Shown: positions 1 to 30,000, counted from the stretch's first letter. The stretch is DNA of 35,623 nucleotides from Candidatus Omnitrophota bacterium (GCA_003645745.1 QNCH01000001.1:1-35623), one strand, 5' to 3'. Notes: a model not told the origin generated them from the sequence alone. Made by a program: numbers and translations.

Positions 1-62
1 AGGCAAATACAGTAAATATTATTGATAATGGACAGCAGCGCCAAATAAGTAAACATGAGTTT

Positions 63-6000: not shown

Positions 6001-9000
6001 CATATACTCCTATGGATAAACTTAAAAATCTCGTTACATATAAAGATAATAGTATTGACCAAACTTACGCGTTAGAAGAATTGCCTGAAGAAGATGCCCC
6101 TATTATAGAGCCTGCGGCTGATGCTGACGCGGATAGCGGAGCAAATACTTTTGCTGATTGGACTGGGGCTGGAACTAATCTGACGATTATAGATAATAAC
6201 AATAATGGAATTATGGATGATGGAGATAGTGTGAATATCAGTAATGGCGACTCAACAGCAAATATGACAGTCTCTGAGGCGATTGGAGTTATACAACAGC
6301 AAACAGGCGTGAATTTGTCTGAAGGAATTGAGCTTAGCGCGGCAGAGATTAATAACCAAATTAGCAGTTCTGGTTATGGCGTGAATATGATTAATATAAA
6401 TTCTAATCAAACTACAATAACTTCCGCGAATAGCCAGGGCACGAGAATTTATACAATGGAGCATAGCCAGTTATCAGATGCGCAAAATAGTTCATATACA
6501 AATTATCTGAGCGCCGGTAATTTTCAGCAAGCAGAATGGCTGTTAAAAGCGAACCATTTATATACAGGCGGTAATGTCAGAGAAAATTTAAGTGACGGCA
6601 CAAATGTAGAGCTATCCCGTACTAATTTGTTAGCGTATGGTGATAATTTGTGTGTTACACGCACTGAATATGCGGAAATGCCTGCCATTGTTTCAGTAGA
6701 AGCATTTAAAGATGAGAAACTTAGCCACAAAGATGTGTACGGAGTTGCTGAAAGCAGCGCGGAGAATACAATATATGAAGTTTCAGGATTTGAGTTTGGC
6801 TTATCCGGAGAAGAAATAGTTGGGATTAGTTCAGCAGCTGATTATAGTTATACAGAAGGCGAAGATGATTATGAGATTAGCCAGGTAAATTTTGAAAATG
6901 GAACAGCAGTTAATTTTCAGAAGATCAATCGCAGATTAAGTGATTCAGATTATTGCCTGATTGAAGAAACAGGTTTTATTTATCACCGTGATGAAAACGG
7001 TAATATTATTAAGATTGAGACTGAAGAGACAAAAGCAACAAATAGCAGCGGCGGGCAGCAGGAGAATGAATCTATTAAGAACGCGCAAGATGTATTATCC
7101 AATATATCAGAGGTAGAAACAGAGAGCGAAGGCAATATTTATGAAGGTGTTGCAATGCTTTCTTCAGAATATATCAGCGGGTTTATCACAGCTGTTTATG
7201 ACTCTTCCAACATAGAAGAAAATACATTAAGGTACACTGATGAAAATAACATAACCTGGGAAGCAAGTAATGTTACTTTTGCTGACCTTAATTCTTTGAC
7301 AAACACTTATACAATAGATGCTGATTCTCTTGTTGCGTTGTCAAAAACGGAGAAAAATGGCGGGCTTTTGATTTGTTCCACCACAAATACCAGTATTACA
7401 GATGTTAATGATATTACTACAGGCGCATACAGCCTTTCAGACACGGAACAAAATGCGGTAATGTATGTAAAGGACAATGGAGACACCTATACTGCCCTTA
7501 ATGTAACTTTTAATACTGAAAGTTTAACTGGAGGCTATGATTTGGATTTAAGCGTTGATGCAAACGATAATTTAAAATATATCAGTGTTTATAATAAAGG
7601 CGAAGACGGTATAACCAGATCCACAATTAATATTGTGCTTAATCGCGGTAATGATTTGAGCCGCGCCAGTTATAGCTTGGCGGATTCTGCTCAGAATTCA
7701 TTAGAGTATAGGGATGAGAATGGGGATATTTATACAGCTGAGAATGTTAGTTTCGCTGGGAGAACTTTAGACAGCGAATATACTTTGGATTTAAGCGCGG
7801 ATGAAAATGGCGGTTTGAATTATGTTAGTGTTTATAACACAGACGAAAATGGAGTGGCAACAGGGACTACAAATATTTCCATTGAAGATGAACATAACCT
7901 TAAATCCGCGAGTTACAGCCTAACAGAAACCGCGAATAATTTTGTTCAATACACAGATGATGATGGGTGCAAATATAGCGCAGAGAATGTAAGTTTTTCA
8001 GGAGAAACATTGGATAGTGAGTACACCCTGGATCTAAGCCGTAACACAGATGGGGGGCTAAATAATATTAGTGTTTACGCTGTTGCCCAGGATGGGACAA
8101 TCAGAGGCACAGCAAATGTGGTAATTGAGGATGAGCATAACCTTAGTTTAGCGAGTTATGATGTTTCTAACGCGAAGCATAATTATATGCAATATATAGA
8201 CGAATCAGGTGTAGTGTGGAAAGTTTCTAATGTAGAATTTAGCGAAGGTACTTTAAGCGGTGCGTATCAATTGCATGATATTGCGGGTTTTAGTGATGAG
8301 GAGTTGCTCGGCAAGACATTGCCTAAAATAGCATCTGAATTTAGTGAATTAGTCAGTTCAGGGCCTTCTCAATATGCTGGATTAAAAGAAAGCAGGTTTG
8401 GCGCAGCCGGGAAGTATGATATTTCAGTTGATTTAAATGAAGGAATCGCGACTTACGTTCAAGACAGTGATTTTATTTTTGCGATTACATTAACAGAAAA
8501 AGAAGGAGCAGGCGAAGGAGTTAGTTTTCAGGCAGGTGATCTGATCAGCTATCGCAGCGTGAGGATTATAACAGAAGATAGAGTAATGACAGATGTTATT
8601 ACAGGCGGCGAATTTACGCTTTCAGCAGGCACATATACGTCAATGGTAGATTTATTAGAAGGCACAGAAACAGTATTTGCTGAGGATGAGAACGATTCCT
8701 CTTATATTTTTACTACTGTTGACCGGACAGCTACCTTTGATGACTCGCAGGAAACAGTTGATTTTAACGCCGGAGATCTTATTGGCGGCAGGTACAGCAT
8801 TGATTTAACTGAGGCTAAATTTATCACTGATCCTATAACTCAGCAGCAGGTAAGTATTGCCCCTGGCACATATACAGTAGCATTGGATTTATTGGAAGGC
8901 ACAGAAACAATAATTACTGATCAGGATAAAGGTTTTTATTATACATTCACCACCATTGATAGAGAAATAATGATTGAGAACGCGACTAACTTAGTTAATT

Positions 9001-12000
9001 TTAATGCGGGAGATTTTGTTGCGGGCAGATATGAAATTACTTTAACTGAAGACATCCGCCTTCCTGATTTAAATATAAGCGGCAAAGGCATAGGCGCTGT
9101 GATGCCGCAAGGCACGTATATCGTAGTTGTTGATATGAAGAGCGCGACACAGACATTTTTGGCCCCAAACAATGAAGAATTTTATTATACATTTACTACA
9201 GTAGGCCGCAGGGTAAAATTTGAAGGTATTGAAAATGATGTGATTATTAGTGTAGATGCCGGAGGTTTTATTGCAGGCAGGTTTGCGGTGCATATTGGCA
9301 AAGGTGTAAGCTATGAATTATTTGCAAGTAGGCTGCGTTCTTCTGGGGATATTAGCGCGTATGGATGGAGTGATGAGATGTCTGTAGAGTATGGTTACGC
9401 TGTTGAAGGTGACCATATTGCGGAATCTGATGTATTAGGCGGCACAAATACCATAATAGATGAAGAAAATGATTCTTTTTGGACATTTACTACTGTTAGG
9501 CGGGATCTTGCCTTGCCAGAACCAGCTGAAGGTTGGGGGCGTAGAGATAGTAGAACCAGACGCATTGAAAAAGGCGCTCTTATCTCTTTCAGATATCAGG
9601 CAAGAGTTGAGAAAGATATATCTCTTGACTACGGCGAAATTTTGGCAAAAGGAAATTATATTGTTGAAAAAGACTGTATAGCAAGAACGGAAACATATAC
9701 TAATAAAAGCGATGCTTCTTATTATACCTTTTATGTTGGGAGCAAAGAGGATTTATCCAGCTCCTATGATCGGTTAAGCAATCAGGGTATGAAAACAAGC
9801 CGGGGAAGGGCCAGGAGAAATCGGCAGATAGAAGAAGTGAGGAAACAGTTGATTTATATCAATGGCCCTGGCATATTAATCAAATCCGGAAAAGAAAAGA
9901 CTATAAGCTCAGAAGATAATGTAGGTTTTAATGATTTTCTTACCGGTCAACAGAAGCAGGTACAGGAGGGGAAATATTTTTGTGAGATTGATTATCTTGA
10001 AAAAATAGAGACTTTGAGTAACAAAGAAACCGGAAATATTTATAGTTTTGCCCTTAATAGTGTAGAGGTTGGCAAAGGATGGGAGAAGGGGTATATATTA
10101 GAGCGAGGAGATTTTATTGGCGGTAGATATACGGTTAACTTGGAGCAGGATTTGCCGATAACTGATTGGAAAACAAATCAGCAGGTAAATATAGGGGCAG
10201 GAGAATATACTGCTGTAGTTGATTTGCTGGAAGGTACAGAAACACTGGTTGACGCAGAGAATGATTTTTATTATACATTTACTACTATTGACCGAAGTTT
10301 GGCTGATACAGAACAAAGAGACGGTTATAATTTTTCTGCCGGCGATTTTATCCAGGGCAGGTATAGTTTGACCATTGGGCAAGAGACTGATGCTTCTTTG
10401 AGCTTGGAGGATGGAGTAGATGATATATCCGCGCAACAGGAATTATCTGTAACAGATCCTGTATCCAGCCAGCAGGTAAATTTTGCTGCAGGTGAATACA
10501 TTGCGCAGGTTGATTTATTAAAGGGCATAGAAATACTTATAGACCAGCAAAACACAGATGATAATTTTCACTATACCTTTACTACAGTGAGAATAAACCT
10601 TGCGCCTGAAGGTGTGGCTGCTGCTAATGTGCAGGCTGGAACACTTATTGAAGGCAGATATGAGGTTATTTTAAGCAGCAATATAAACATACTGGATGTA
10701 GAAACTAATCAAACCACAACTTTACAGGCAGGTGAGAGTTATATTGCTGCTTTAAATTTACTCGCTGGGCAGGAGGTTTTGACCACAAATTCAGGGGATA
10801 ATTTAGAGGCCACTTCTTACACTTTTATAATCAATAATCCTGCTGTTTCAAATGCAGCGGATAATTATATTTTTGATTTAAAAACAGGAAATGTGGTTGC
10901 CCCAAGGAATGTAACATATGATGCAGGGGGCCAGATTACCGGTTATGAATATTCTGAAATGTATGGGGCTTTAAATCATACAATTTCAGGCATAACCAGG
11001 GAAAATGACATAGCCGAGCCTGAAACACTGTCCACATTCCCGCAGTCTCAGATTATTGGCAATAAGGTTACAGGCTGGCAATGTATTAGTGATGACCTGA
11101 TTTCTGGGGAAATAGAAACAACTCAGAGAACAGGCATTACTTATGATCAGGAATTAAGGATTGCCGGATATACAGACAGAATTACATCTCCTGCTACACC
11201 TGAGTTGGTAACCACAAATATTGTTTCAGATGTAATGAAATGGGACGCGCAGGGCAATCCTTTAGAATATACTCAGGTTAACAGACAGCAGTCTCTTCTC
11301 GCGGAAGAATTTGAAAGACTTGGCGGCGGGCCTCAGGAAGTAACAATTAGTGTGACCGCGCGCGGCGGCGGCAATCATTCTATGCCTTATTTTGGAGTAT
11401 TTGTAAATGGAGAAGAAGTTAGCAGATGGCAGTTAGGGCATGACGTAAGTAATGTATATACAGTAACCTTAACGTTATCTCTAGGAGATAGCATAGAAAT
11501 CAGGCAGATTGATATTCCTAAACATGGCTCAACAAATTTAACTAAAGTAGAGGTTACGCTTGGAGATACTACTTTTAGTACAAATATGGATGACAAGCGT
11601 AATTCTGCTTCATGGGCGAGCGACTATCGTTTAGCAACAGACCAGATTATGCAGGGAGAGGATGTATCTGATGGATACTATCAACTTTATCCATACAAAG
11701 GCCGGGGGGCGGGATCAGTTGATATCACCGGCCAGATTTTTCTTAATAGTATAGAAACAAAAGTTGTCTCAGACACGCAATTAGATTCTGGGGGCAATCT
11801 TATTTCGTGGAAAGAAACTATAGTTACTAATGCCGCGCCGAATTTAACGACAGAAAGTGTATATACACGCACCAGTACTGGAGTGATTATTAAGTCTCAT
11901 CTTTTTGGCACAGATCCAAACGGCAATCTCAGAGGCAATAAAGACATTGAAAATGAAGTTACCCAGTCTTTAATTAACGTTTATAACAGCAGCTCTGAAC

Positions 12001-15000
12001 TTCAGCAGCAGTTTCCAGACGCGCTTAATCCTGACAATTCTTCTGCTAAACAAGAGCTGATTAACTGGGCACAGCAAACAGGTTACGCGGAAAACGCGGA
12101 ACTTTCAGCGTATGCTCCGGCTGAACAATTAACCATAGATTATTATACTACCAGCAAGATTACCTTTCTTGATGACAATGGTTCGTACAAAAGCGAATTA
12201 GCTGACGGCCGCGGCAATATAATTGTCACTAAAGAAATACATAATGCAGATGGCAGTATAACAACCACAACTTTAGGCGGATATGATGATGAAAACGCGC
12301 CTGGTTCAAATAAGAAGCATCGCGACCAGTCATGGGATACAAATATGGTGTTTAATTCAACGCAGTTTTCTACAGTTACACAATCGCAGTTTCAATATAA
12401 CGGCCTGGGGCAAAAAATTGCTTATGAGCAAAAAATAAACGGCGGCGATACACAGCATATTTACGGCATTACTTATAATCAGTACGGCCAGATGAGCGGC
12501 AAGGTAATGAAGGAAGGCCGCTCAACGACCTGGACCCATGATATAAAATATAATGCTTTAGATTTAAAAACATTTGAAATTGGAAATGCCGGTTATAAAT
12601 CGAGCAAATTTTCTTCATTGACAATTACTGAAACTACTTATCAGTATGACCAATACGGTATGGTCAAACATATAGATAAAGATGTTACCTATCATAAAGA
12701 ATGGGTGAAGAAGAGTTTTATGTCTAATCCAGTAGTTATGATTGTAGCTGCGATAATTATTGCTATAATCGCGGTATTTACTGCTGGAGCGGGGTTGGCA
12801 TTATTGGGAGTAGGTGGTGCGGCTGGGGCCAGCGCTATAGGCGCTGGTATGGCAGCAGTAAGCTCGATGTTTACAATGAGTTTGACTGTTGGCAGTTTAA
12901 TTGCTACATGCGGCGGCGCATTTATTGGCAGTATGGGCGCGAGTTTACTTGCTGGTAATAGTTTTGGTGATGCTTTAACAGCTGGCGCAATTGGAGCAGT
13001 TGGCGGACTTGTGGGCAGTGCGCTTGGCCCGCTAATGCAGGGATTCGGCGCTGGTTGGGCTGGAAATGCTGGCAATATAGTTAGTGGATTCAATCAAATG
13101 GGTACTATTGCCCAGGGGCTGGTGAAAGCTGGAGCTTGGGTTGGCAGTAAACTTGGTGGAGCTGCCAATTTGATTTCATCAGGAATTGGCAAAATTGGCA
13201 ATTTTTTCAGCCCTGCGATAAGCGGGATAAAAGATTTTTTTGCTCCGCTTACGTCGAAATTTTCAGAATTTGGCGGCAAGATTGCTGGAGCCTGGGGCAA
13301 AGTGAAGAATTTTGTAAAAACAAATATTGGCGATAAAGTGAAGAATTTTTATAATCACGGCACAGCTACTGTGCCGGCAACTACTACGCAGAAAGTTGTA
13401 ACTAGTATTGCTGACCGTGCAATGTATATTGGCGCGGTGGAAGGCTTAGACAGCGTTGGTGTAGGCAACGACGGCGCAATGATTATTGGGGGAGCAATTG
13501 TTGGCGGAATTATTGGGGGCAGCGGAGCTGGCACAACCTTTGAGCAGGGATTTACCTCAGGCGCAGTACAGGCAGGAGTTAGCCAGCTTGATTTAGGCGG
13601 CTGGGAAAATGTGGTTGGAGTTGCCGCAAGTGTTGCTGTGGATGCTAAGATTTCAGGTACTAAAATTTCAAAGATTCCAGCTGCTGAAATACAAAAGATA
13701 GCCGGATCTGCGGTATATACAGGTATGCAGAAGGTTGGGCAAGCTTTGGGTATTGATCCAACATTAACCAGTATTAACAGTATTTTGCTGCGGTCTCAAT
13801 GTTTAGATAAGCCTGAAACAGCGTTAGTTTCCGGAGTAACTAATTTAGCAGTAACCAGCGCGATTCAAGCTATAACCGGCAAAGAATGGTCTGAGCTTTC
13901 AAACACAGAAAGGCTTTTAGCTGCTGGAGTCGCGGATATATTCAGCATTGCTGCAACAGAAGCGTATTTTGCCTCAGACTCTGGGAATTTTAAAGATAAT
14001 TTTGAAAACAAGTTAAGGAGCGGGTTAGAAGCTGCATATACATTTGGAGCGCCTGATAATCTTACAACTGGTAATTTAAGCGATTATTTAGGCTCAGTAA
14101 TTGATTTTGGCAATGATTATATGGAAAACGGGTTAGCAGATTCTTTAGTTAACATCACCACAGATACCTGGATAAACCAGGCAGTTGATGAAATTGGCGG
14201 ACAGTACGGATTAATTGCCGGGATTTTCGGGGATGTGGAAACTGGCGGAGATATTGATGGCAGCCGGTATATTTTGCAGGAAAATGAAGATGGGACAAAA
14301 ATCAGAGTTTGGAATAACGGCAGTATTACTTATGAAAATAGTCTGGGTGAAGAGATTGGGCACAGGAGAAGCTTTAATTCTAATTTTGATCCTGCGCAGC
14401 TTGAGGGTAAGGTTGTATATGTAGAAGCGTGGGATAGTGGGAAACGTGATTATTATGCTTATAATCAGGATACGAATAAATTTATTCTCATTGGGAGTAC
14501 AGAACAACAGAAGATTCCTGAGCGTCCTGTATATAGTTTTAATTCTGAGTATACAGAAGAGTTTACCGAGATAATTAATAATGGGCTAACCAGTATAGAT
14601 GTACTTAATAACGGCTTAATGCCGATTACACAATATGATTATTTATCTACCTATATGCCTCAAATGTATGAGGGTAATTTTTCTCTTCTCAGTTCTGTGC
14701 CTGATCAAACAGCTCCGGCAATAACAGCAATTACCTATAATCCAATCGCTCAGATTTATCAATATCAATATACAGACGGCAATACAGGATTATATAACCA
14801 GAACAACCACAATTTTGCCTTAGCTAACCAGAATGGGCAGGTTTTAGGCAATTGGACATTTAATCCTGCGCAGGGAACATCTTTATATGATTATTATATA
14901 AACAATAACGCGGTTAATCAGGTTACTGGTCAGTCACCAGCGTTTTCAGGCATTGATTTTAATAATGGTATTGTGTATTCACAGGACAATGATCCTAATG

Positions 15001-18000
15001 CTGCTCATAACCAGGCTTATCTGCTTTCCGGCCAGGGCGAAGTTGCAGGAGAGGTTTATTTTACCCCTAATCGTACAATTGTAGATACCGGTTATGATAC
15101 ATTAACTACAAATATTGGCCTTTATCCTGGAAACAGCCTGATGCAAAATAGCGCTGGTACTTTTGATGTATATTTTGACCCTACGCAAGGCACAATCATT
15201 AACGCGCAGGATTCTAATGTAGGCTTTAATTCGGTTATTCCGGCAAACGCAAATTTCTTTACCGGAGATGCTGGTATAAACGCAACTACAATTAATTTAC
15301 ACGGCAATACAGATATTATAGATACAGGAGTAGAAGAGATTTCTACTTCATCTGGACAGGGAGGCTCAGGCGGCCAAGCAGGGACTGCGTATTTACAGGA
15401 AAATAACGGCAGTGTCTGGGTGCATGCAGGTGAGAATGCGTCTCTTACAGTAAATTATAATCTGCAAAACCAGGCAGTATTTAATCATGGCCAGAAATTT
15501 ATGATTGATGGCAATTATCCGGTTACGATAAATAATGTTAATACACATTCAGGCCTGGTTACAGGAATAGAAGGCGGGATTCAGCCTTCCATTGACGCGA
15601 TATTTGAAACTGAAAGTTTAGGCTTTGTACAATCCGTTAATTACGAAGGAGTAATTGGTTTGCATTCAATGTCAGTGCCTGCAAATGACGCAGTAATATT
15701 AGACAACAGCCTGCTCGGTACATCATTGCCTGAGCTTGGCATAGGTGTTAGCGGCCAACAACTTAAAATAAATAATATTAACGCGGACGGCAGGGTAGTT
15801 GGGCTGGGCATTGATTCGAGTTTAGGCGTAAACGCGCAAAGCCAGATAGGTTTTAGGGACAATTATTCAGAGCAGACAATAAGTTTAAGCAGTGATTTGT
15901 CACCGGGGCAGGAAGTTCATATAGGCTTAGGCTTAAATGGTGGTTATGTATTAACCAAAGATTTAGAGATTGACCCGTTTGCTGGAGGCGGCAGAATAAA
16001 CGCTGGATCTGCTGTTTCTGATTTAACCATTGGCGCTGATGGGAGTGTGACAAGTTTAGAATTTTCCAATATGGGTGTAAGCGTTGATCTGTTTAAAGGA
16101 GAATCTTTTGGCATAGGCCAGAATATTTATGATTACAGCCAGAACGATAATTATTCATCAGGTACTTCTACAGGCGCGGGCAATGATGTTTGGGTAAACA
16201 AAGATTTAAGTAATAATTTTAGTTTGCAAAACGGCAGAATAAACATTTCAGAAAACAAAGGCGTAACATTTAACAGCGGAGATAGCGTAAGATTCTCCGG
16301 TTTATCTGATCAGGACGTGATTACAATTCATAATGGAGATGCGATTGAGTTTAAGGGCAATACGTTTGGCTTACACTTAACCAATGCCCTTCCATACACA
16401 GAAGACATTAATCAGCAGATTACCCTGATAACTAATCAGGGCAAAACAAGGACTGATTTATCAGCTACAGAAGTAATCGGCGCTGACGGTAAAGTTCAAG
16501 CGTACTATGGATTTGAAGGTTTTAGCAGTCAGGACGCTGGAGATGAAGTAAGGTTAGGCGAAATTGCGTATCAGGTAACCAATGTTGGCGGCAAATATAA
16601 ATTAACTACTGCCCTTGAAACTGAAAATTTGCAGCAGCAATACACCTATAATAATAAAGAGTATTCTCTTGGATTAGAAAAGGGCAATATTTTATTTACC
16701 CCTGATCTTATGGGCAGGCTTGTGTCAGCAGAAGAAGTAAATATGGGCAATGGCTCTAAGCTAAAAGAGCTTTCAATTAATCCTGGGGCAATAAATAAAG
16801 AAGGAGTAATTACACAGGCAGGCATAAACACAGCGACTGTGTATTTATCTTCTGCTGACGGTCTTGATATTGCAGAGGATTTGGTAATTAATTCAGATAA
16901 AATGATGTCCAGCGCTCAAACAACGAATAATTTCTTAGAAGTTTCTAAAGATCCTGAAAACATGACTTATCTTGACCGCGATAATCAGATAATGCACGGT
17001 ATTGTGCATTTGCAATCAGACGCATCAGGCCAGGTTGGAGTTCATTATGTTTATGGTCAGCAGTTTGAGATTAGTAATGCAGACACAGTAAGAGACAGTG
17101 TTTTAATTAATGGAGTTGCCGCAGGCAACGGAGAGTGGATGGTATTAAACAATACAGCTGTGTTAATTAGTGAAACTGGCCAAATGTGGGATCTTGACGT
17201 TCTAAACGGCCAGGGCCAAAACGCGAGCGCTCTGGTAAATATAGATACACATATGGAACAGGGAGAAAAAGCAAATCAATATACTATTTATGGGCATACA
17301 GCTAAATACGAGTTTACGCAGGAAAACATTGGGTACACAGTTTTAAAGAACGGGCAGGAATTTAAGGTACAGGAAATTGACGGCGAGATAGGGTTAGGGC
17401 TGGATAATCTTAGTGTAACCAATCCTGAAGACAATAAAGTTTATTTGCACACTGATTATATTTCAAATGCAGAACTGATTAAAGGCGGGTTAAATCTTTA
17501 TGACATTGACAACAGGCTGAACACACAGATTGCTTTTAGGGGACAGGATAGTGCAGGCCCGTCCAATGGTGTGCTTAATTATGTATACACCTCTGGAATG
17601 GACGCAAATAAAGATTTTTATATACAGCAGAAAACATATCAATTTTCTAAAGATCATAAATACACTGGTTTTAATCTAAATACAAGCACATATTTTAATG
17701 ATCAGAGTCTGCAGGTAAGGACAGAAAATCAAACTGGCGCGTATAGTTTACGAAAGATTGACGCAAACGGCAGAGTAACAGAGTATAGTTTTTCCACGCA
17801 AAAGACACAAACAGATATCTCTAAAGAAATTAATGATTTAGGCATTCATGGCGTAAGCATAAATGATCAGGACAAGTTCAGAGTAGTCAGCTTAGGTTCT
17901 GAGGCAGTTACGTGGCTGCAAGGCAAAGAACTTGGGATTAAAGCAGACGGCATATTTGGGGCAAACACACAAACCTCGGTGTCTAATTATCTTAATCCTG

Positions 18001-21000
18001 AACTGGGCAGAAACACACGTGAGCATAATCTTGGAGTTATTGGTTATTACAGCGGATTCCTAAATTCTGAGAACACTGGTTTACTTTTAGGCGGCATAAA
18101 TACGCTTCAAACACAGCAGGCAATAGAGCAAAGTAAAGATGCTCTTACCGGCAATTGGGTGCAGGGGGAAAATGGCGGCAAAATTTATACTGGTGATATT
18201 ATGCTTGGCGGTTTATCTGTTGAAAATGTTACGGTTGAATTTAATTCTGATGAAAAGATTGAAAAGATTAAGCTTAATGAAGAAAATAGCGGCAAAGTAT
18301 ATCTTATGCCGGGAGAAAAGGGCAATGTAGGTATAGATAAGCAAGCATATGAATTTAGCGCTGGAGCAGAAGGAGCACAGGAGAAAATTTATCTTGGGCA
18401 AATGGATGAAAAATTCAATGTAACCTTGTCTGCTGATTTAGCAGTTAAAGATTTTGAAAATGATTTTATCATTATGGCTGATTATCAGGGAGTGCAGGCA
18501 GAGTTAACTTTAGGCGCAAACGGGCTAACCCTAATAAATGGCGTGTATCAAGCTAATCAGAAAGTTTATCTGCATACAATCCCAGACGGCGGCGGCAGTA
18601 CCAGCCCAACTACTAATATTACAAATGTTAATATTCGAGATTATAATTCGCCTGACACATATTTAATCAGCGGCATAGTTGAAGTTAGAGGCGGGCAGGA
18701 ACTTATTTTTACCGAGGGTGCGAGTTTAAGTGTTTGGCAGGAACCAGGTTCTACGTTTACATATAATGGCCAAACCTGGGTGCAAGGCTCCTGGGATGTT
18801 GGCGCGAATGGCCAGTTAGAGGCGCGTAAAGATGAGTCTTATGTTCAGTTATTTAAAGAAGGCGGGCTTGATTGCAGAGTATCAGGCATTGGAAGGCCTG
18901 ATCATGGGATTACCTGGAAAGAGATTACCGGAGATACCAGTATTGACTCAAAAGTAAGTCTTGCTTCAGTTGATCCTACATCTATATTTTATGGAGGTAC
19001 ATTAGGCATAGAAAGCGGCTCTTTAGTAGCTAGGAACGCGCCTTATCTGCGTGTAAGCACAGATGAGATGGGTAATAAAGTTATGTTTGCTGGGCACACA
19101 GATGAAAATGGCTTAAGGCATGATATGCGGTATAGTTCTTCTTATAGCCATCCTTCAGAAACAGATTCTTCTATAGACCCTTATTTCGCAAGGATGGATG
19201 CCATACATCCTGAGGACGCGATTAATTTTACAGTGTCTAATTTAGCAGCCAATAATGAATCTGCCTGGCGTGTGTTCAGCGCGCAAGTAGAGATTAGTGA
19301 CGCGTCTTTTGCGGAATTTTTGGCTGATATTGACGCGGGAATTGCATCAGGGGCAATCAGCGAAAACCCGACATTTAATTTTTCTGTAGAAAGTACAGAC
19401 GGCAAAATCGCGAGTGTAACAAGCACCTGGGAATTAAAAAATGGCAGAGAATATGTTCCTGTTTATGAGCAGGAGTATGACGGCAATCCAATAGCTTTGG
19501 GCCAGACATTTGATGTAATCTTCAATCAGGGAACAGACAAAGAAATAACCAGGAGTTATGTTGTAGAAGAGTTTGGCAGCGAGCTGAGGTTTATGTCTGC
19601 GAGCCGGGTTACAGAAAATAAACAAGCAGTTATTTTAAACCAAACTCGTGAGATTGATTTAGCACAAGGCCCGGTTTATGAACTCTATAATTTGCAAAAC
19701 AATGTTTTCAGCTTAAGAGGCACAAAAGAAGTAAACGGGCATACTGGAGTTGGTTTTATTGGTGATAATGAAGAATTTTTATTGCTTAACGGCAATAAAG
19801 TTTCTAAAACAGAAAATACCTATTTTGTTAATCAAGGCATAGGTTACAGCATAACTGACTTAGGCACAGGCCTTGACAACGCGTATATTTCTTCAGGTGT
19901 TGGAGGAGCAGGTGGAGAGTCTAAAGAAAATAAGATCAGGATTTTTGATAGAAACGGCGAAGTTTATATTGCCAAGGATTGTTTGTTTACCATCCAGAAT
20001 AACCAGTGGATGGTTACCGGCTCAGATTCTTTAGAAAATATTGGAGATACAAAGATAAAAGTAATTAATGCTAATGGAGACGACCAGTTTCTCAGGGGCG
20101 GTGTATATGCAAGAATTAGTGAAGGCAAACTCAATACTTATGTTTCAGGAGGAGTTGTAGATTATAATGATAAATGGTCTCGTTATGGCAAGAATGTTTT
20201 AGAACTTCCAGGCCGCGGAATTAAAGCAGTGTTTGACGAAACAGACGGTGTTTGGAGCGCTCTTGGCAAAACTGTAAGTATTGGCTTAATTGGCGGCGCA
20301 GCAGTTACCGCTTCAGTATTTGGCGCAGTAGAAATGGGCTCTTTAATTCCAGGAGCAATTAAGAGTGTTGAGGGTGGATTTATCAGCAAAAGCGCGCTTG
20401 GTTTAACCGGGCTTGAAAGCGGTTCAATTAGTTATGGTTTAGCAGTAGGCGCGATAAAATTAGCAGGAAGTGTAGCTGTCGGGTCAGCAGGTATGGCTGG
20501 GATAGAAGCAGTTAGGGGCGGTTCATCTGAAGAGATTAAAGAAGCAGCATTTGAAGGCGCGAAAATGGGCGCTTATTATTGGGGACTGTCAGGAGCTTTG
20601 GGCCTTGTTTCACACGCTTCTAAATTAGAGCTTAGCGCGGAAGCCGGAGAGTTGTTTACTGGTAATGTGTTTCAACGCGCGGGACAGCGCTTAGCTGCTT
20701 ATGTTGGGCGCGGCCAGAGTACTCAAAAATTGGCTAATGTGTTAGGCAAAGGAGCTACGCGTGCAACTTACGCTGGACGTATGGCAGCAGATACAGCTTT
20801 AGGAGTAGCAGAAACCAGCCTTGGTGTTGGCCGGATATCTATACCTTTCCATGCAGGGGCAAAAGTAGTTGAAGCATTAATAGAGACTACTCCAATAGAA
20901 GATCATATCTGGGGAGTAGAAAAGCTTGCTGAATTTGGGCAGGGTAATATTGAAGACGCGATTTTACAGGGTTTTGTTTTTGGCGCAGTGCTTGGACTTC

Positions 21001-24000
21001 CGCCTTTGAGATGGGCTACCGGAGCAGCAGCTGGGCTGGGCAGGAAAATGTTAAGTAAACCTGGAGAGATTTTGTATGCAACCCCTCTTGGCTCTACTGT
21101 TGGCAGAGCAGCGGCAAAATTAGTTAATGACCCAGTGCTTAAAGCAGCAAGTATGGGCGGAGTATTTAGCGCGATTTCTTCAGGCTCAGAGATTTATCAG
21201 ATTCTTAATGATGATTCCCGTGATTTATTCAGCAAAGAATCACTTGAAGATATTGCTATCTCAGGAGCGGTTGGCTTTGGTATGGGTGTTGCTTGGTCTT
21301 TAGGCAGCAGTGCTGCTCAAGGCATTGGTAATTTAGCTAAATCAAGTTTGTTAAAGCGAACTGCTAATGCAGGGGTAAAAGCGGTTACGTCTGCAAAGAA
21401 TACTTTTTCTATGCTTGCTCGTGAAGGTTATGTAGAAAATACATTTTCTGGAATGCTGCAAACCTGCGGTGTTGATCCTTATACAGCAGAGATATTAGCT
21501 GAACTTTTGCCTGAAAAAGGCGGCGGGGCATCTGCTAAGGCGTTTGCATATACAAATATGGGTTCAGTAATTAGTTATTCTGAGGATAGCCAAGGCTTAG
21601 GAAATAAGATTAATTTAAGCTCGTTAAATACAGAAGAAGACAGCAGAATAGAAGCAAACTTAACTAGATTAGAGGCAAAGTATAATTTAGAAGATGGAAC
21701 ATTAACTAACCGATTAAATTCAGGCAGTTTAACTGCAACTGGTGTGATGAGTACAATTAATGAAAGCGGCAGTTCAGGTATAAGCGTATCAGAGGTATGC
21801 TCAGAGGTTGGCATTAGCGTTGGCATGGTTCAGGAAAGCCTGAGTTTGGATGCAGCGCAAATGGAGAATGAGTTTGGCATAAGTATTGAAAAAGGCAATG
21901 CTTTTGAAGGCACAACATTATCAGAGCTTTCTATACTTGGCGGCACTCCTGAGCATTGGGAAAATCAAGTAAGTTTAGAAGAAGCTAAAAAGCTGGGCAT
22001 AGATATTTCAGAATTTCAATCACCGGGAATAAGTGATACAGATACTATAATCAGTATAGAAGCGAAATTAGGCAAAGATTCTGAGTCTGCGCAAAAATTA
22101 CGCAGCCGGATTGGAGATATCAGCATAGCAGAGTATGCTAAAGTTAAAGGAGTTAGTCTTGAAAGTTTAGCAGAAAAGAGCAATTGTGAGCTTAAAGCCT
22201 CATTAGTTAGCGGGGATTCCGCAATGAGTGAATTTGCCAGAGCAAAAGGTTTAAGTATTAATGCGGAGTTTTTGGCGCAATATGATTTAAATCTAGGATC
22301 TATACAAGGCAGATTAGAAGGCAAAACAATTGAAGATAAATTAAGCGAAACAATAGACGCGGAATTAGCGGAAGTTAAAAAGGATTTAAAATTCAACGCG
22401 GAGCAATTAGCGAGCTTGCCTGCAAAGGGAGAGACAAGGACAAAAGAGAGATTAGGTTTAGAGCAGACAAAACTAATAAGCGCTAAACAACAATTAGAAA
22501 CCTTGCGGGAAAACATAGGGCAAATAGAAACAACAAATGAGCTTAGTGCAATTTCAGAAAAACTTGGAATAGAAACTGGCCAGTTATTAGATAAGGTTGG
22601 GATTAAAGTCAGTGATTTATGGAAGATTAATGGAAAGGATAAAGAACAATTTGCAAAAGATGAGAATGTGAAAATAGCTCCTAAGTACGCGCTTGATCAG
22701 GAGCAATTAATGGGTGAGGGTGAGAATGTAAACGCTTTAATTGAAAGCTTGATTGCCGGCAATCAAGCGATAAGTTTGGTTGTTAAAGATGATGCAGGGA
22801 ATCTTGTTTTAGAATTTAATCAGGCAAGCAAGATTGAAGTAAAAGCATTTGACAAAAAGACTGGTATTATTCATATAGCAGTGGATAGTTCAGGGATAAA
22901 ACAGGAATTTGATCTTACAATTGATCAAGATGGCGGGCTTTTAAAAGTTGAAAGCGGCAAAATTTCAATTAACAGCGAGGTATTTGAACTTGAATCTGCG
23001 GAAGATGATGATGGCAATATTATCTGGAAAATCAAAGAAGATATTGGCAATAAGGCGCAGCAGAAAATGGCAAGAAGAATGAACACGATTTTAGATAAAT
23101 TTGCGCAGTCTAGAGGTTATGAGCTGAGTGTGCGCAATGATGTAAACCAGTTGGAATCAGTCTTAAAATTAGCTTTTGACCCTGAAACATTCTGGGAAAT
23201 ACCTGCAGGCACAGGAAAAACCAAAGCTATTTTTACAGTAGCTGCAGCATTTACTGCTGAGTTTACAGGCAGAAAAATAGTAAATGTTTTGCATAATAAG
23301 CCCTTACTTAAAGATGCAGTACAGGATGATTTTAAAGGAAACGGAGAATTAGGAGAAAGAGGCGAATTTTTCCAAAGCCTTGCTGTAGTTTCTCAAGCTG
23401 ATTTTGCTGATCTTGTGGGGCAGGATAATGTTGATGCTTTGATTGAAGATTTAATAGATCAGGGCTATATTGATGCTGAATTAAATATTTTGCCCGCGTT
23501 CAGGCAGACAAATGAGAAAGATTTTAGTTTAGTATGTCAGGATAAAGGTTATGCAATGCAGAGCGCGCAAATATATACGGTTTTAGAAACAGCAAGCAAA
23601 GGCATAACTTCATTGCAATTTACGCAGGAAGATTTAAAGATTTTAGAAAAGGGCGGAGATAACGCAGAAAAGCTGATTCAAAGAATTAATGATGCTGATG
23701 TTATTTACATAGAGTCTGATGCCTGGGGATTTCTTGCACTTGAAGCGCAGCAGGCAAATAAATTTAATTGGGGCGAGAAAAAATGGGTTAAGCAGGCACA
23801 TAACGCGATTTTTGGAGACAGTAAGGTAATCCATGACGAAGTTGATACAATGTTCGGCAAGAATCGTTTTCAGCAGGGACAAGATGCGCGCATATTAACA
23901 GACACAGAAATAGACGCGATTTTATTTGTGCACAAAGCAATGCAGGGAATAGTTAAGCAGGGAATGGTTGAATCTAAACAAGACTTTGATAATCCTGTAG

Positions 24001-27000
24001 AGCGGGTTAAAGCAGAAAGAGGGTTATTAGAATTTAGTGTGCAGCATCGGGACACTTTTGAAGATAGTACAATGTCTTATGAAGAGTATAAAAGCTTAGC
24101 AGACCCGTATAATTATAATGTTAAAGGCGTAGCTTATAATAAAAAAGCTAAAGAGGCTTTAGTTGAGTATATTAATGAAAACGGTATAACTACTGAATCT
24201 GGGGATAAACACGAGTTTGAAGTAAAGTATGACAACGGAGATATTGTGCTGGTTAATGAGAATGGGACAAACGAGAAAATATTAACTACAGTTAAAGCTT
24301 CTTTATCCGGCAGAGTAAAAGTTCTGCGCCAGTATGAAGGCGGGGCAATGGGTTATGATGATGCGAGCGGCTTAATGAAACCTTTTGCCAATAAAAACTT
24401 AGCGCCTGATTTACAGATTAGCGACCCTTATCTTGCCGGCCATACAGAAGTTGTGGGCAAGGATTTAATGTCAGAGGAATTAAAAACCAAAGGACAGCAA
24501 GTAGAGCCTCTGCTCAGGAAAATGCGTCTTTCAGGCCGTGCATTAATTACCACCATGGCCAGGGCAATGAGAATGGCCAGGAAAGTTGGCGCAGATATAA
24601 GCGGATTTTCCGGCACCATTGCTCCTGTTTCGCAGTTATCCAGCGCGTTTTACGGCATAAACACAGTTTTAAATAATGCTGAAAATAAAGGTATGCGTTT
24701 ATTTGATTCTGAAAATAAATTAGAGAGAACAGATACTGAATCAGAAGCTTTGCAAAGCATAGATTTAGAGAACGGCAAAGTTCATGTGTGCTTAACAGGC
24801 TTAAAAGGAATAGATGAACAGGTTATTACAACCGAAATGCTGGAAATGTATCAAAGAGAAGGCTATACAGTAATATTTAAAGATCAGCAAACAGGCTGGC
24901 TTGTGTATAGGACAGATAAACTTGAAGCTGGAGAGCTAAGTGGTTTAGTTACCGCAGAACTCCAGGAAAACACAGAATTTAAAGAAAAGAAATTAACTGC
25001 TGAGCAAGTAAACCAGGCTTGCGCGTTAATTGTAAATAAAGTTAACAATGATACAGAGATTAATTTAGAAGTAGTGTCTAATTTGCATAACGCGAAAATT
25101 AAAGCAGAGCTTATTACAGAGATAGAAACAGAATTGAAGATAACTTCAGAGCAGGCACAAGCTTTGGTTGATACAGCTTTAAATTCAGCGAACAATTTAT
25201 TAGTTGAACAAAGGGACACAAATCAGATTGAAGGATATTTAGAGAAAGAAAGAACAGCTGAAGAAAAAGTTATGTTTTTCTATAATCTTAGCGCTTGCCG
25301 CGGCACAGACGTTAGTTTTGCTGACCGTTCAATTAAAGGAGTAATGGATAAAGTTGAAGGCGAAGTTGATGTTCATGCTTTTTTTGACCCATTAAGTGTT
25401 GATTTTGATGTGGAACAATTATTAAAAAGGGACCGCGGCTTGAAATTGCAGAATCCAGCCAACAATGGTAAATGGGAATTTGTGTTTAATGAGACAAATT
25501 CAGAAAACAGCGGATTTGTTTTTGAGAATCAAAAAGATCCTGAGAAAAATTATACACCTGTTTATAACGCGTTAACCGTGCATTATGTGGGCAAAGTCAG
25601 TGATGACGCGCAAACAGTTGATCAGAGAACCGCGAAATATATTTTGGAACAATATGTTAGCCCTGAGCAGGCGCAAGCAGTAATGGCAGGATTAGGAAAT
25701 GCTCAGGTTGAAGTAAGCGCGTTTACTCAAAAATTAAAGGACAATGGAATCAGCGAAGAGACAATTGCAAAGGTTACTGATTTTATCAAAATAAGTTATG
25801 TTTTTGCGCAAAACGGTATTTCCGAGCAAAAGGATATGATGTATAAAGGGTTGTCAGACATCTATGACACACTTACCGGCGAATTTATCGACAGTTTAAT
25901 TGAAACAGCACATAATCCAATAGAAATGAAAAAGATACAGGAAATGCAAAAAGATTTTTATGAATCTTTTGGTTCAGACACAAACATTAAATTAATTGAA
26001 AGCGCGCCAAGCGCTGTGGACGCGTTACAAACAAAATTAAATAATATTATTGATTTTTTTGAGTCCAGAAAAAATAAGGGCAATGACCCAGTATTTAGCG
26101 TATTATCGAAAACAAACAAGCAAAAGATTCAGGCATTTATTGATGCGCGCCCAAAGTTAAATTTAACTGGCAAAATTGATCATAGAGCTGTTCCTATAGG
26201 TATGGCAGATAGTTTAGCGCAGGCAGTTGATTCAACCAATAAATTAATTAAAGTATCTGATTTGCCGACAATAGTTTCAATGAGCGGTAAAGCGCACACT
26301 ACAATTACCGCGCAGTCTTATGAATCCAGAGAAGATAGTATGCAAAATTTTACAGACTCTGAAAAGAAAGAGTTTAAACAGGGACTTGAACAAAGAGGCC
26401 TTTTAGACGGCAATACTTTGAGCGCTTCAGGTGTAGTTGCGATGAATGCATTGGAAACTCTGGAAAAAGCGGATGATAAAGTTAAAACTGAGTTAATGAA
26501 GCTCGCGGAATCCAGAGGCAAAGACCTGAGGAATTCAATTGCAATGCTGCTTTGGTTTTTATTGGATGAAGATTTGTTTTCAGTAAATGAGCTATCGTCT
26601 GCAACAATGGATAAACTAATTCATATAATCGCAGTGATCCAGTCTTTTGGAAAAGCGGTTAATCGGAACGCGCTGATTGGCAAAATAAAAAATATTCAGC
26701 ATACAGATGATCCTCTTGCTCTGCCAAAAGCAGTATTAGCAGAGCTTGAGAAAGATATAGGGCAATACAAAGATTTATCTAAGAAGATTACTTCTGAGGT
26801 ATCTTCTATTGCTCAGGAAGACAGGCTCAACACTGCAAAAGCAATAGTTTTAGAATCATCTTTTGATCATGCAACAAAAGTAAAGATTATTACCAATTTA
26901 GAAGGGATTCAGAATATAGATGATCCTTTTGCTTTAGGCAAAGCAGTGTTTGGCGCGATTGAATCCAAAGGCAGCATTGGGAAACTATCATTATATGAAG

Positions 27001-30000
27001 CATTATCTACTCAAATTGCAGTTCTGGATTTAGTTGCTAATGATCTTAAAGATACAAAATTAAAGATAGCGTATTTAGAACAGGCAATTGCCAAAGATCA
27101 GAGTAACCTAAATCTGAGCAATGGCCTTAAAAAACTGCCATTAATGTTGAGTTTAGGCCTTAAAGCAAACCAATTACAAGGCTCTGGATTAAAACAAATT
27201 CTTAAGAAACTAAAAGAAACTTTAACAATGTCTGGGATGCCGATTAATACAGGCTTAAAAGAGAAATTAGAGAATTTAAAGCAGGTTTATGCAAAATTTG
27301 AATTAAGTATTCCAGAGTTAAAAGAAATAGCAGATAATTCAGGCATAGATCAGTTAAAAGAAAATCCTTTAAGTTTAGGTTTATTATTTAATCCTGAGCT
27401 TGAGCAAACTCAAGTTACTAATGCGGAAAAATTAAGTGTTGTGTTAGAATTTTTAAGCGAACACTCAGCTGAACTTGCAGATGAGTTTGGCAAGCTGAGC
27501 TTAACAAATGTAACTGATTTTGGCAGTTTATCAAAGGATCAGCAGGAAACTATACTTAGTTATTTTGCAAAAGCAGGCCATGATTTAAAACCTGAAGAGT
27601 TTTCTAATTTACGGAGTATGCAGTCTATGCTGGGGAATGTCGGCGGATTTGGCATAGCTTCAATGCTGCAAGGGCTAATGGACAAGGTTTCAGATGATAA
27701 ATTTGCTGGGCAGGCCTCTGGTGCAGAGGCTGCAAGCTTGAGCGTAGAAGCTGAGGAGCAGAAAATTACTTTAGTGAACTGGTTTGCCGGCACAGATGTT
27801 AGTATTGGAGAATATTATGTAGCTGCAGCAGAGAGTAAAATAAAAGAAGCTCAGAAACCTGAGAATACGGAAAATAAAGCAGATTTAATTAGAAATGCAG
27901 TTGGTAATTTTAATAAAGTTATTGATAATCTTGAGAGTAGCGCAGCAGAAAGAATTAGCGCGTGTTTGGGGTTAGCAAGTATTTATACTGATCAGAATTT
28001 GGGTTATCTAACCCCTGGTAATTTAACGCATATAGACGGCTTGCTTGATGGAAAAACTAATAATGTAAACTCTTTGCTTAAAAACAAAGAACTTTCCGCC
28101 AAGCAAAAGAAGCAGTTTTTAAATCAATTAGCCCAGACAGAGCTTAGATTAAGTGATGCTTATCTGGGGCTTAAAACTCCTATGCCGATAAATTCTGTTA
28201 CCTATGGCATAAAAGCATTAAATAATATTAAAAAATTGCCTGAAGATGCAAGAGAAGATTTTGATTTTGATTCTGCGGCTTCTACACTTGCGCAAAGAGC
28301 GCTTAAAATTGAAGACAAAGGCTCTGCGATTATGTTCTTAAAACAAATCAGCGGGTTTGTTCCTGATCATGGCACAGTGCATTATTGTTTAGGCACAGTT
28401 CATCTAGAGCAGAAAAATCTGACTAAAGCAGAGCAAAGTTTTAAGCAGGCAATAGCTAAAATGCCAGATACAGATAAATTAAGAAATAACGCGTATTTGA
28501 GCTTAGCTGAAATTTACCTGGAACAGGAAGAAGCAGAAAAAGCAGAGCAAATTCTTGTGCAGGGTATGGAGAATTTTGTTGCGCCGAACGTTAAGCTTAG
28601 CGCAGCAAAAAGAAATCAGGCCATAGATGCTTATTTTGTTCCGGCATTTAATATGGCAAAAGATAAATTAGGCAATCTCAACCTTTGCGCTGAAATTCTG
28701 CAAAAGCGTCATTCTAAATCTAATATCCCGCTGGTGTCTTTATCAGACAGAGTCAAGGCAGCAGCGTATGCAGCAGCAGTAAAGATTGAACAGGGAAAAG
28801 CATTTAGCGCAGATGATTTTGCACGTGCTTATGGAATCAAAGATGTTGAACTGATTAATAAGTTTGGTGGGGCAGTAGGTAATTTGCGTGCAGCTAAAGG
28901 AGCATATAATGCAGACAAGTATGCAACTGCTGCAATTAATATTATTGCAGAGTTGGTAGGAACAATAAATACTCCATTAGAAAAAGCAGAAGTTATTGAT
29001 TCTCAAACAGTATTATCTGCTGATCCGAAATTTCAGTCCGCAGTTGATACTTTGTTAGCAAGCTTTAATGATTTAGCGCTTACAGAACAAGAACAAGTTG
29101 CGGCAAATAAATCTTTAGAGTCTTTCCGCAAAGGAGAGGTTGAACAGGCATTTAATATTTTGCACACAGGCTTAACCGTAAATAGTTCTAAAGATTATAG
29201 AATGTTGGTTGTTGGTTTTGCGATTGTGAACAAATTAGAAAGCGGAGCTGGTTTGGATAAAATAAGTAATTTAGTAACTAATTATGCGATGAATGCTGAA
29301 CCGAAAAGTAAATTACTGAATTTTGCGAATAGATTGATTAGTAATAAAGACAGCTATTCAGAATCAAATTATTTGATCAGTGTGTGTTCTCAGACAAAAG
29401 CTTTGTTTGAAAAAGACGTAGAATTAAGTTCGAATGTTGCTGGCTTTACTGAAACAAACGATATGTATAAAATGCAGGTTGGCAAAGATGTGTCTGAACA
29501 AGCAACTGTTGCGCAGGAATTAGCTGGTTTAGGTATTGTTTTGGGACAGGGCAAAGATTCAAAATATGTTACTATAAATGATTTTCTTAACGACAATGGA
29601 ATTACTGAAGCTAATTCAGCAATTAAAATTACTGCTGGGAATATAACCTATTTTGCGCGAACAGAAGGATTGGGAAATACTCCTGAATTAAGTATGCTGA
29701 TAAAAGTAAACAAAGGCAAAGTAGAAACAGTTGAAATTTATACTGCAGGAGTTTTCTCAAGACAGGTTCAAAAACAAGAAGATAAAGACAATTATTTATC
29801 AGCAATGCAGAGCCAGCCTGATCTGAAGAGGTTTGTGGTTGCCGCAGACGGACAGGTTGTTCAGGAACAGATTAGAGTTGACTCGCAGACTCAAGGTACA
29901 AAACAAAGCATGGGTTTTGATTCATTACGTAACCAGGTACTTGAAGCAGTCAGCGGGACTTTTAGAGAAAATAATGCTGGTAAGATTAACACTTTGCCCG

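Follow-up and report, generated by a model that had tools for sequence, protein, structure and literature searches.

We analysed a 35,623-nucleotide (nt) stretch of DNA from a Candidatus Omnitrophota bacterium (GCA_003645745.1, QNCH01000001.1:1-35623; "the window" means this whole stretch), which is dominated by a single open reading frame (ORF) of 9,993 codons. Our preferred reading, to which we give a probability of roughly 60%, is that this ORF encodes an Omnitrophota 'Dockerin-type' giant envelope protein whose cytoplasmic C-terminal part contains a highly divergent ATPase motor of the SecA type, that is, a DEAD-like superfamily 2 (SF2) motor. Taken by itself, as a clade-level description, 'SecA-type motor' is probably correct, a judgement that we make with fair confidence from profile comparisons and a structural model. 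Both the layout and the export hypothesis that goes with it are already published (West-Roberts et al. 2023, bioRxiv 10.1101/2023.11.21.568195), which contradicts the suggestion of a first-pass annotation, made from this DNA sequence, that such a layout had not been described. The window protein is an unusually divergent further member, and the locus therefore opens no new category.

The first-pass annotation had picked out five ordered motifs of a two-RecA-lobe SF2 engine. All five lie within the giant ORF, at coordinates that we could confirm, and the RNA-gene and ORF checks of both strands returned neither an RNA gene nor a rival long ORF in the motor region. The ORF, the module and its motifs are placed as follows, with amino-acid (aa) positions counted in the giant protein.

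63..30044, plus strand: giant ORF, 9,993 aa, with N-terminal repeats, two hydrophobic clusters and a tail carrying the motor and TPR repeats (ORF call, Pfam, hydropathy)
23013..25505, plus strand: SecA-like SF2 motor module, aa ~7651-8481 (limits from family homology)
23205..23222, plus strand: motif I (Walker A) AGTGKT, aa 7715-7720, with the catalytic lysine K7719; P, G and K invariant in the family alignment A1
23694..23732, plus strand: motif Ib-like strand ADVIYIESDAWGF, aligned to its SecA counterpart
23829..23846, plus strand: motif II (Walker B) IHDEVD, aa 7923-7928, with D7925 and E7926; D, E and D invariant
24603..24617, plus strand: motif III GFSGT, aa 8181-8185, in register with SecA GMTGTA
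25296..25313, plus strand: motif V CRGTDV, aa 8412-8417, aligned to SecA AGRGTDI
25416..25439, plus strand: motif VI QLLKRDRG (arginine-finger region), aa 8452-8459; Q, R, R and G invariant

A HMMER scan of 1.84 billion representative proteins with aa 7650-8500 as the query yielded 28 relatives, nine with E-values below 1e-30, and all within long proteins (1,600-7,800 aa where full-length). Neither the single sequence nor the family alignment retrieved anything in a word-indexed homologue search. Overall identity among the relatives is just 24-45%. In A1, an alignment of 11 family sequences, the invariant columns are the motifs themselves (P65/G69/K70; D276/E277/D279; G527/A528/G532/T536; N759/A762/R764/D767; Q803/R807/R809/G810), giving the patterns D-E-x-D at Walker B, GAxxxGxxxT at motif III, NxxAxRxxD at motif V and QxxxRxRG at motif VI. 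Motif II reads DEVD, DEAD or DECD across the family, and Q[LMW]xxR[DT]RG occurs at motif VI in 16 relatives, so that the sequence first offered as a 'possible' motif VI proves strongly conserved. Because the catalytic columns are invariant at such low overall identity, they point to a functional ATPase and not to a chance set of motifs, and the two-lobe SF2 assignment holds, with every catalytic motif conserved.

The same conservation bears on whether the module might be a degenerate, catalytically dead RecA-like relic serving as structural filler in a fast-evolving giant protein. Extreme divergence from all curated families would fit such a relic, as would two relatives without recognisable motifs V and VI, whereas the invariance of all catalytic residues at 24-45% identity points to purifying selection for the binding and hydrolysis of ATP; we find the relic scarcely credible. 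The two relatives concerned, P0016 (module at aa 2193-2960) and P0017 (aa 4893-5680), keep motifs I-III. They may represent a sub-lineage whose second lobe has degenerated, or the segment boundaries may have missed that lobe.

The module is encoded in 11 genome loci, seven of them in metagenome-assembled genomes (MAGs) or single-amplified genomes of Candidatus Omnitrophota and the others in MAGs labelled Planctomycetia or Clostridia. In all 11 the module-bearing ORF is long, with 3,100-7,000 codons or more. One locus (L011, 2183-2300) had suggested a split gene or stand-alone motor; its ORF begins right beside an assembly gap (a run of N), and the idea was dropped.

Three of the motifs had been likened to SecA in the first-pass annotation, and an unbiased alignment gives the same pairings (GFSGT with GMTGTA, RGTD with AGRGTDI), while DEVD is the tetrad of E. 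coli SecA, in a Walker B region that reads VDEVDS in SecA versus IHDEVD in the window protein. We ran a family hidden Markov model (HMM; 20 sequences) without filters on a SecA set, comprising ten diverse SecA/SecA2 proteins from PLSDB chromosomes mislabelled as plasmids plus E. coli SecA, and on seven E. coli superfamily 1 and SF2 helicases as controls (UvrB, RhlE, DinG, Rep, RhlB, UvrD, and RecQ). The scores were:

Mycoplasma SecA: 16.6 bits
Paenibacillus SecA: 12.9 bits
Acinetobacter SecA: 11.6 bits
Listeria SecA2: 9.8 bits
Fusobacterium SecA: 4.8 bits
Nocardia SecA: 4.0 bits
All seven control helicases: 2.2 bits or less (E. coli DinG, -1.9)

Among 2,000 residue-shuffled SecAs, the maximum was 10.0 bits and the 99th percentile 3.4. 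The HMM alignment is in register at motif III, where the family's '...dlsGFSGTlsaVedlakllYGvnv...' matches SecA 'kLaGMTGTAkTEeeEFkkIYgLdV' and runs on to 'vivKdq' opposite 'vLNAK'. Over motifs I to Ib, the family's 'FxEIPtGtGKT ... ADVIYmeADtxxF' pairs with SecA from 'AEMkTGEGKT' on, with Walker A aligned to SecA MxTGEGKT.

Profile-profile comparison with hhalign against a 10-sequence SecA profile gave two colinear matches, one between family columns 468-580 and SecA 385-486 (42% probability, E 2.7e-4) and one between family columns 63-185 and SecA 106-207 (17%, E 1.4e-3). Single templates reached 67% (Listeria SecA2, E 5e-5) and 44% (Mycoplasma SecA), with further colinear segments at motifs III and V; at motif V the family's ATRgtDi faces SecA AGRGTDI. 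The control helicases aligned over 21-56 columns, mostly round Walker A (DinG, 47 columns), and RhlE over 133 columns at a probability of only 3.5%. A near-global hhalign run against E. coli SecA lost register after Walker B and was discarded. The SecA signal is thus weak in absolute terms and asymmetric, yet specific, colinear and in line with the fold search described next.

Structure prediction followed by a fold search, which the first-pass annotation had proposed as a check, gave SecA and SecA2 as the best matches in the PDB, with DinG, XPD and DdmD close behind. The AlphaFold model built with the 11-sequence alignment has a mean confidence score (pLDDT) of 68, which rises to 70-90 in lobe 1 and in the insert that separates motifs II and III; a single-sequence model (pLDDT 38) was unusable. 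In Foldseek against the PDB, SecAs from E. coli, B. subtilis, M. tuberculosis and T. maritima occupy ranks 1-4, 6-9, 11 and 12 (E 7.7e-7 to 2e-5, and no higher than 1.3e-5 for ranks 1-4 and 6-9), and SecA2 structures (4uaq and 6t4h) are returned as well.

The spacings I-II, II-III and III-V were described at the outset as expanded, and they exceed those of E. coli SecA. The window protein has ~210 residues between motifs I and II (E. coli SecA, 105; shortest relatives, ~130), 256 between II and III (180; ~232), ~231 between III and V (119; ~145) and ~40 between V and VI (62; ~30). The long I-II and III-V spacings are due in part to two lineage-specific inserts, the first of which is otherwise seen only in relative P0004. 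The inserts and the segments next to them are:

23385..23597, plus strand: lineage-specific insert of ~70 aa between motifs Ia and Ib, aa ~7775-7845 (alignment)
23850..24542, plus strand: alpha/beta domain inserted between motifs II and III, aa ~7930-8160 (alignment, model)
24930..25217, plus strand: helical insert of RecA lobe 2, lineage-specific and ~100 aa long, between motifs III and V, aa ~8290-8385 (alignment, low-confidence model)
25530..26942, plus strand: family-specific post-motor extension of ~450 aa, mostly helical, aa ~8490-8960 (conserved across the family)

The domain between motifs II and III is the family's most length-variable part (232-525 aa) and occupies the position of the preprotein cross-linking domain (PPXD) in SecA. 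An insert of some 250 aa had been noted there and compared with that domain. The motif spacing (256 aa) and the position stand, whereas sequence similarity to the PPXD is not significant, amounting to a third-rank hhalign match only. As we read the model and the alignment, the chain may return from the insert to lobe 1 through a beta-hairpin, a helix ('DPYLAGHTE'), a strand and helix ('ITTMARAMRMA') and a strand ('ADISGFSGT'). This order would mirror the SecA series 'DYIV..IVDE / GLHQAIEAKE / tlAsITfQNyFRlY / kLaGMTGTA', with homology to the PPXD itself only a candidate.

In the giant protein the motor follows two hydrophobic clusters, and the earlier placement of the motor C-terminal to the last of them (aa 6737-7085, against a motor start at aa 7651) is borne out. 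The membrane-related segments and the downstream repeats of the tail are:

12729..13541, plus strand: hydrophobic cluster 1, aa 4223-4493 (hydropathy)
20271..21317, plus strand: hydrophobic cluster 2, aa 6737-7085 (hydropathy)
28365..28577, plus strand: TPR repeats of the cytoplasmic tail, aa ~9435-9505 (Pfam); relative P0003 also has TPR repeats after its motor

Cluster 1 comprises one strong transmembrane segment (Kyte-Doolittle 2.97), a 76-aa Gly/Ala-rich stretch without any charged or amide residue and two more segments; cluster 2 has four segments of moderate hydrophobicity, rich in Gly and Ala (Kyte-Doolittle peak, 1.62). Both clusters are unusually rich in Gly and Ala, and only one segment in the two is a classical, strongly hydrophobic transmembrane segment. 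Cluster 2, which ends ~570 aa upstream of the motor start, is presumed from the sequence to be the final membrane anchor ahead of the cytoplasmic tail. Since no hydrophobic segment follows it, aa ~7100-9993 would form a soluble tail. Hydrophobic clusters precede the motor in relatives as well, at a distance of 600-1,500 aa, and the closest of these relatives share the whole cassette, from the region before the transmembrane segments to past the post-motor extension. In the larger relatives, the motor is positioned between transmembrane clusters.

Several results weigh against a SecA-type motor in a cytoplasmic tail. Run in reverse, the SecA HMM gave no detection of the modules, of the relatives at full length or of the giant protein. 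The Pfam comparison proposed as a check in the first-pass annotation did not bear out the SecA families: SecA_DEAD (PF07517) and SecA_PP_bind (PF01043) gave no match to the window protein at E ≤ 10 and none to any of the 11 family members at E ≤ 1, whereas ResIII (PF04851) matched nine of the 11 (best 2e-6) and DEAD five (best 1e-6). A search of all PDB sequences with the family profile did not find SecA and returned only weak Walker A matches to BLM, RIG-I, Hel308 and Brr2. Even the best hhalign probabilities are modest, at 67% at most. In the structural comparison, the second RecA lobe of the model is of low confidence, DinG (rank 5, E 3.4e-6), XPD and DdmD are interleaved with SecA, and the Foldseek TM-scores are low (0.25-0.29); such values would be expected for a flexible multi-domain model, and we take the Foldseek result as a ranking rather than as proof. 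In the post-motor extension, similarity to the SecA scaffold, wing and two-helix finger was not detected by hhalign against the 10-sequence SecA profile, a comparison of limited sensitivity that aligned motif V only. Finally, the topology is read from hydropathy, which cannot by itself settle on which side of the membrane aa 4500-6730 lie or how often the chain crosses it.

In the remaining library searches, Helicase_C matches no member in Pfam, no relevant Pfam family covers the post-motor extension, scans of NCBIfam, PHROGs and PADLOC gave no match, and phmmer against PDB sequences gave only noise. For the motor of the window protein, sub-threshold matches to ResIII and AAA_30 are all that Pfam returns, the former at E 0.007-0.009 and 16.4-16.8 bits (cut-off, 22.5).

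The Pfam profile of the family raises the question of whether the module could be an SF2 helicase or translocase that depends on nucleic acid (ResIII, DEAD or XPD/DinG/DdmD type) and not a polypeptide motor, fused by chance to a membrane protein and acting, for example, in defence or DNA handling at the envelope. The ResIII and DEAD matches, the weak PDB profile matches to four helicases and the Foldseek placement of DinG at rank 5, with XPD and DdmD below 1e-3, all speak for it, and XPD-type helicases too have an inserted domain after motif II and before motif III. The Pfam and PDB-sequence matches, however, lie mainly over the Walker A region; the above-threshold ResIII match of P0003 (25.4 bits), for instance, is confined to the Walker A segment. 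SecAs score higher with the family HMM than the DinG, RecQ, UvrB and DEAD-box controls and align over a greater length, in several colinear segments, and Pfam finds no nuclease or nucleic-acid-binding domain in the tail. XPD, DinG and DdmD share with the window module two RecA lobes, accessory domains inserted in lobe 1, an SGT-type motif III and Foldseek E-values of 3e-6 to 1e-3. The module differs from XPD and DinG in having DEVD and not DEAH at motif II, in showing no FeS-cluster cysteine set in the alignment and in a motif V (ACRGTD) that, like its motif II, is of the SecA/DEAD kind and not XPD-like. A helicase is accordingly a reading that we consider quite unlikely.

The likeness to canonical SecA and SecA2 extends beyond the fold-search ranking to a DEAD-like two-lobe motor with DEVD, a G(M/F)(T/S)GT motif III and RGTD at motif V, a second lobe that starts in a similar way up to 'LNAK' (here 'vivKdq'), a QLxGR-type motif VI and a domain inserted between motifs II and III. 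The differences are a similarity below Pfam detection, extra lineage-specific inserts and a helical scaffold, wing, two-helix finger and C-terminal linker that were not detected in our comparisons. Unlike soluble SecA, moreover, the motor is covalently part of a membrane-anchored giant protein.

Should the SecA-type reading be right, the motor would hydrolyse ATP at the inner membrane face, tethered by the giant protein's own transmembrane segments in place of the SecA C-terminal domains. The domain inserted between motifs II and III might then act as a clamp that pushes or holds unfolded polypeptide. The substrate could be the extracytoplasmic segments of the giant protein or a partner, moved via SecYEG or another channel. 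Timing constrains this scheme. The motor is translated only after ~7,600 residues, in the last third to be made, and so could give no co-translational help to its own N-terminus; its action on that N-terminus would have to be post-translational, and action in trans on later copies or on partners is equally possible.

Late translation is awkward for self-export, and it is one of the points that favour a SecA-derived motor in a non-export role, either as an ATP-dependent switch or clamp remodelling its own tail or as a source of force or signal passed through the transmembrane clusters to the surface. Canonical SecA engages SecY by its scaffold helix and two-helix finger. Here scaffold, wing and finger are undetectable, a conserved ~450-aa extension stands in their place, a TPR interaction module lies downstream of the motor in this protein and in P0003, and the motor of larger relatives sits between transmembrane clusters. 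SecA-like motors in such roles have no known precedent, however, the present evidence fits the export model equally well, and a domain inserted where SecA has its PPXD would suggest that polypeptide is clamped; a non-export function strikes us as unlikely. A further possibility is that the Pfam-invisible family, with its motor, conserved ~450-aa extension and glycine-rich transmembrane cluster upstream, is a separate SecA-derived lineage that works independently of SecYEG and uses its own transmembrane clusters as a private conduit or force transmitter. We regard this as very unlikely, but it would, if true, make the protein an export or mechanotransduction machine that is complete in itself and encoded in cis, serving surface proteins of several thousand residues.

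The SecA-type reading agrees well with what has been published for Omnitrophota giant proteins. In those termed 'Archaeovorin' and 'Dockerin-type', transmembrane anchors precede divergent SecA DEAD domains, which overlap the SecA preprotein-binding domains and are without scaffold and wing (West-Roberts et al. 2023, 10.1101/2023.11.21.568195). In the Dockerin type, the anchors lie near the C-terminus and are 'followed by secA related domains'; the adjacent transmembrane regions were suggested to serve as their membrane anchor, and the proposed role is to secrete either the giant protein they belong to or accessory proteins (same reference). A PF07517 architecture cluster has also been reported among long Omnitrophota proteins (2026 preprint, bioRxiv 10.64898/2026.06.07.730766).

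The window protein resembles the proteins of West-Roberts et al. in host lineage, in N-terminal Dockerin and EF-hand signal, in the order of transmembrane anchors and motor, in the scaffold and wing not detected and in very long branches. It differs in that neither it nor its 10 relatives match Pfam SecA_DEAD or SecA_PP_bind even at E ≤ 1, so that, unlike in the Pfam-detected published clade, the SecA-likeness of this family is visible only by structure prediction and targeted profile tests. It is also smaller (~10,000 aa against 30,000 aa or more), and its family has a documented post-motor extension of ~450 aa that is conserved. Given that the Pfam models do not detect it, the window family may be a separate clade, more divergent than the published giant-protein SecA clade.

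So far, the principal hint at how bacteria export and anchor surface proteins of 10,000 to >100,000 residues comes from a SecA-like motor built into the cytoplasmic tail. The present locus offers a compact example (~10,000 aa) with an excisable module (aa ~7650-8960) and clear catalytic residues. Because part of the motor family is invisible to standard Pfam searches, surveys of giant proteins may under-count it.

Pfam recognises few pieces of the remaining giant protein: Dockerin_1, EF-hand and RHS-repeat signal within the N-terminal 1,200 aa, repeats of an extracellular type that include Ca-binding ones, and the TPR repeats of the tail. The frame is open from base 3, with no in-frame stop ahead of nt 63, the first listed start, and the gene therefore probably extends beyond the 5' end of the window, where it is cut, leaving an ORF of at least 9,993 aa. 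A C39 peptidase end was suspected in the first in-frame residues (NTVNIIDNGQQRQISKHEFLNNFSGYILA, window 1-122), for which a Pfam search of the 60-aa fragment gave no support; C39 domains are reported in the literature close to the N-termini of Omnitrophota giant proteins.

Two kinds of repetition are seen in the N-terminal part of the protein. A segment of ~650 aa recurs ~2,000 aa further on at 48% identity (E 8e-164), and tandem-like repeats of ~100 aa, with copies 24-38% identical, fill window ~8400-10900 (aa ~2780-3615). The consensus pieces of the latter ('YYTFTTIDR...FNAGDLIxGRY...GTYT..VDLLEGTET') are matched by no Pfam family. The duplication and the genes downstream of the giant ORF are:

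165-2084 and 6096-8030, plus strand: copies of the internal duplication, aa 35-674 and aa 2012-2656 (48% identity)
30629-33814, plus strand: downstream ORF of 1,061 aa, with a signal-peptide-like N-terminus and internal repeats of ~100 aa
33943-35151, minus strand: LptF/LptG permease (Pfam E 1e-78)

The 1,061-aa ORF, whose repeats read 'ILPQVKTTxAAVIxGTQxQKTEAVxVLA' and have no Pfam match, was considered as a conserved partner of the giant protein and ruled out, since neither the 11 related loci nor the 28 relatives contain a homologue. The LptF/LptG permease implies a diderm host. Its true start is likely an internal methionine giving 362 aa, and an identical product is encoded on a 1.6-kb metagenome contig in ENA (ERZ27227322).

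SecA-related motors also turned up outside the family. A plasmid of Legionella geestiana (NZ_CP041715, 13.8 kb; L024, locus 3001-4500) encodes a 'hypothetical protein' of ~2,948 aa with a SecA motor and, like the window protein, without SecA C-terminal domains. Its module scores 141 bits with the SecA HMM but 1.5 bits to the window family, and the organisms and flanking domains differ. 'SecA-like helicase-related domains' have been described in Amoebophilus effectors (Zhang et al. 2012, PMC3482391). Plasmids of Rhizobiales and Rhodobacterales (Mesorhizobium ciceri NZ_CP088148, L023, locus 2917-4878; H32, H34 and H36) carry SecA homologues of ~650 aa that consist of motor and PPXD only and are annotated as 'DEAD/DEAH box helicase' or fall under 'prepilin peptidase' features; the M. 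ciceri gene adjoins one for an HlyD-family adaptor. Many secA-bearing 'plasmids' in PLSDB are in fact chromosomes or chromosome-sized replicons, for example NZ_CP104448.1 (4.09 Mb) and NZ_CP084075.1 (2.1 Mb), which calls for care with plasmid statistics.

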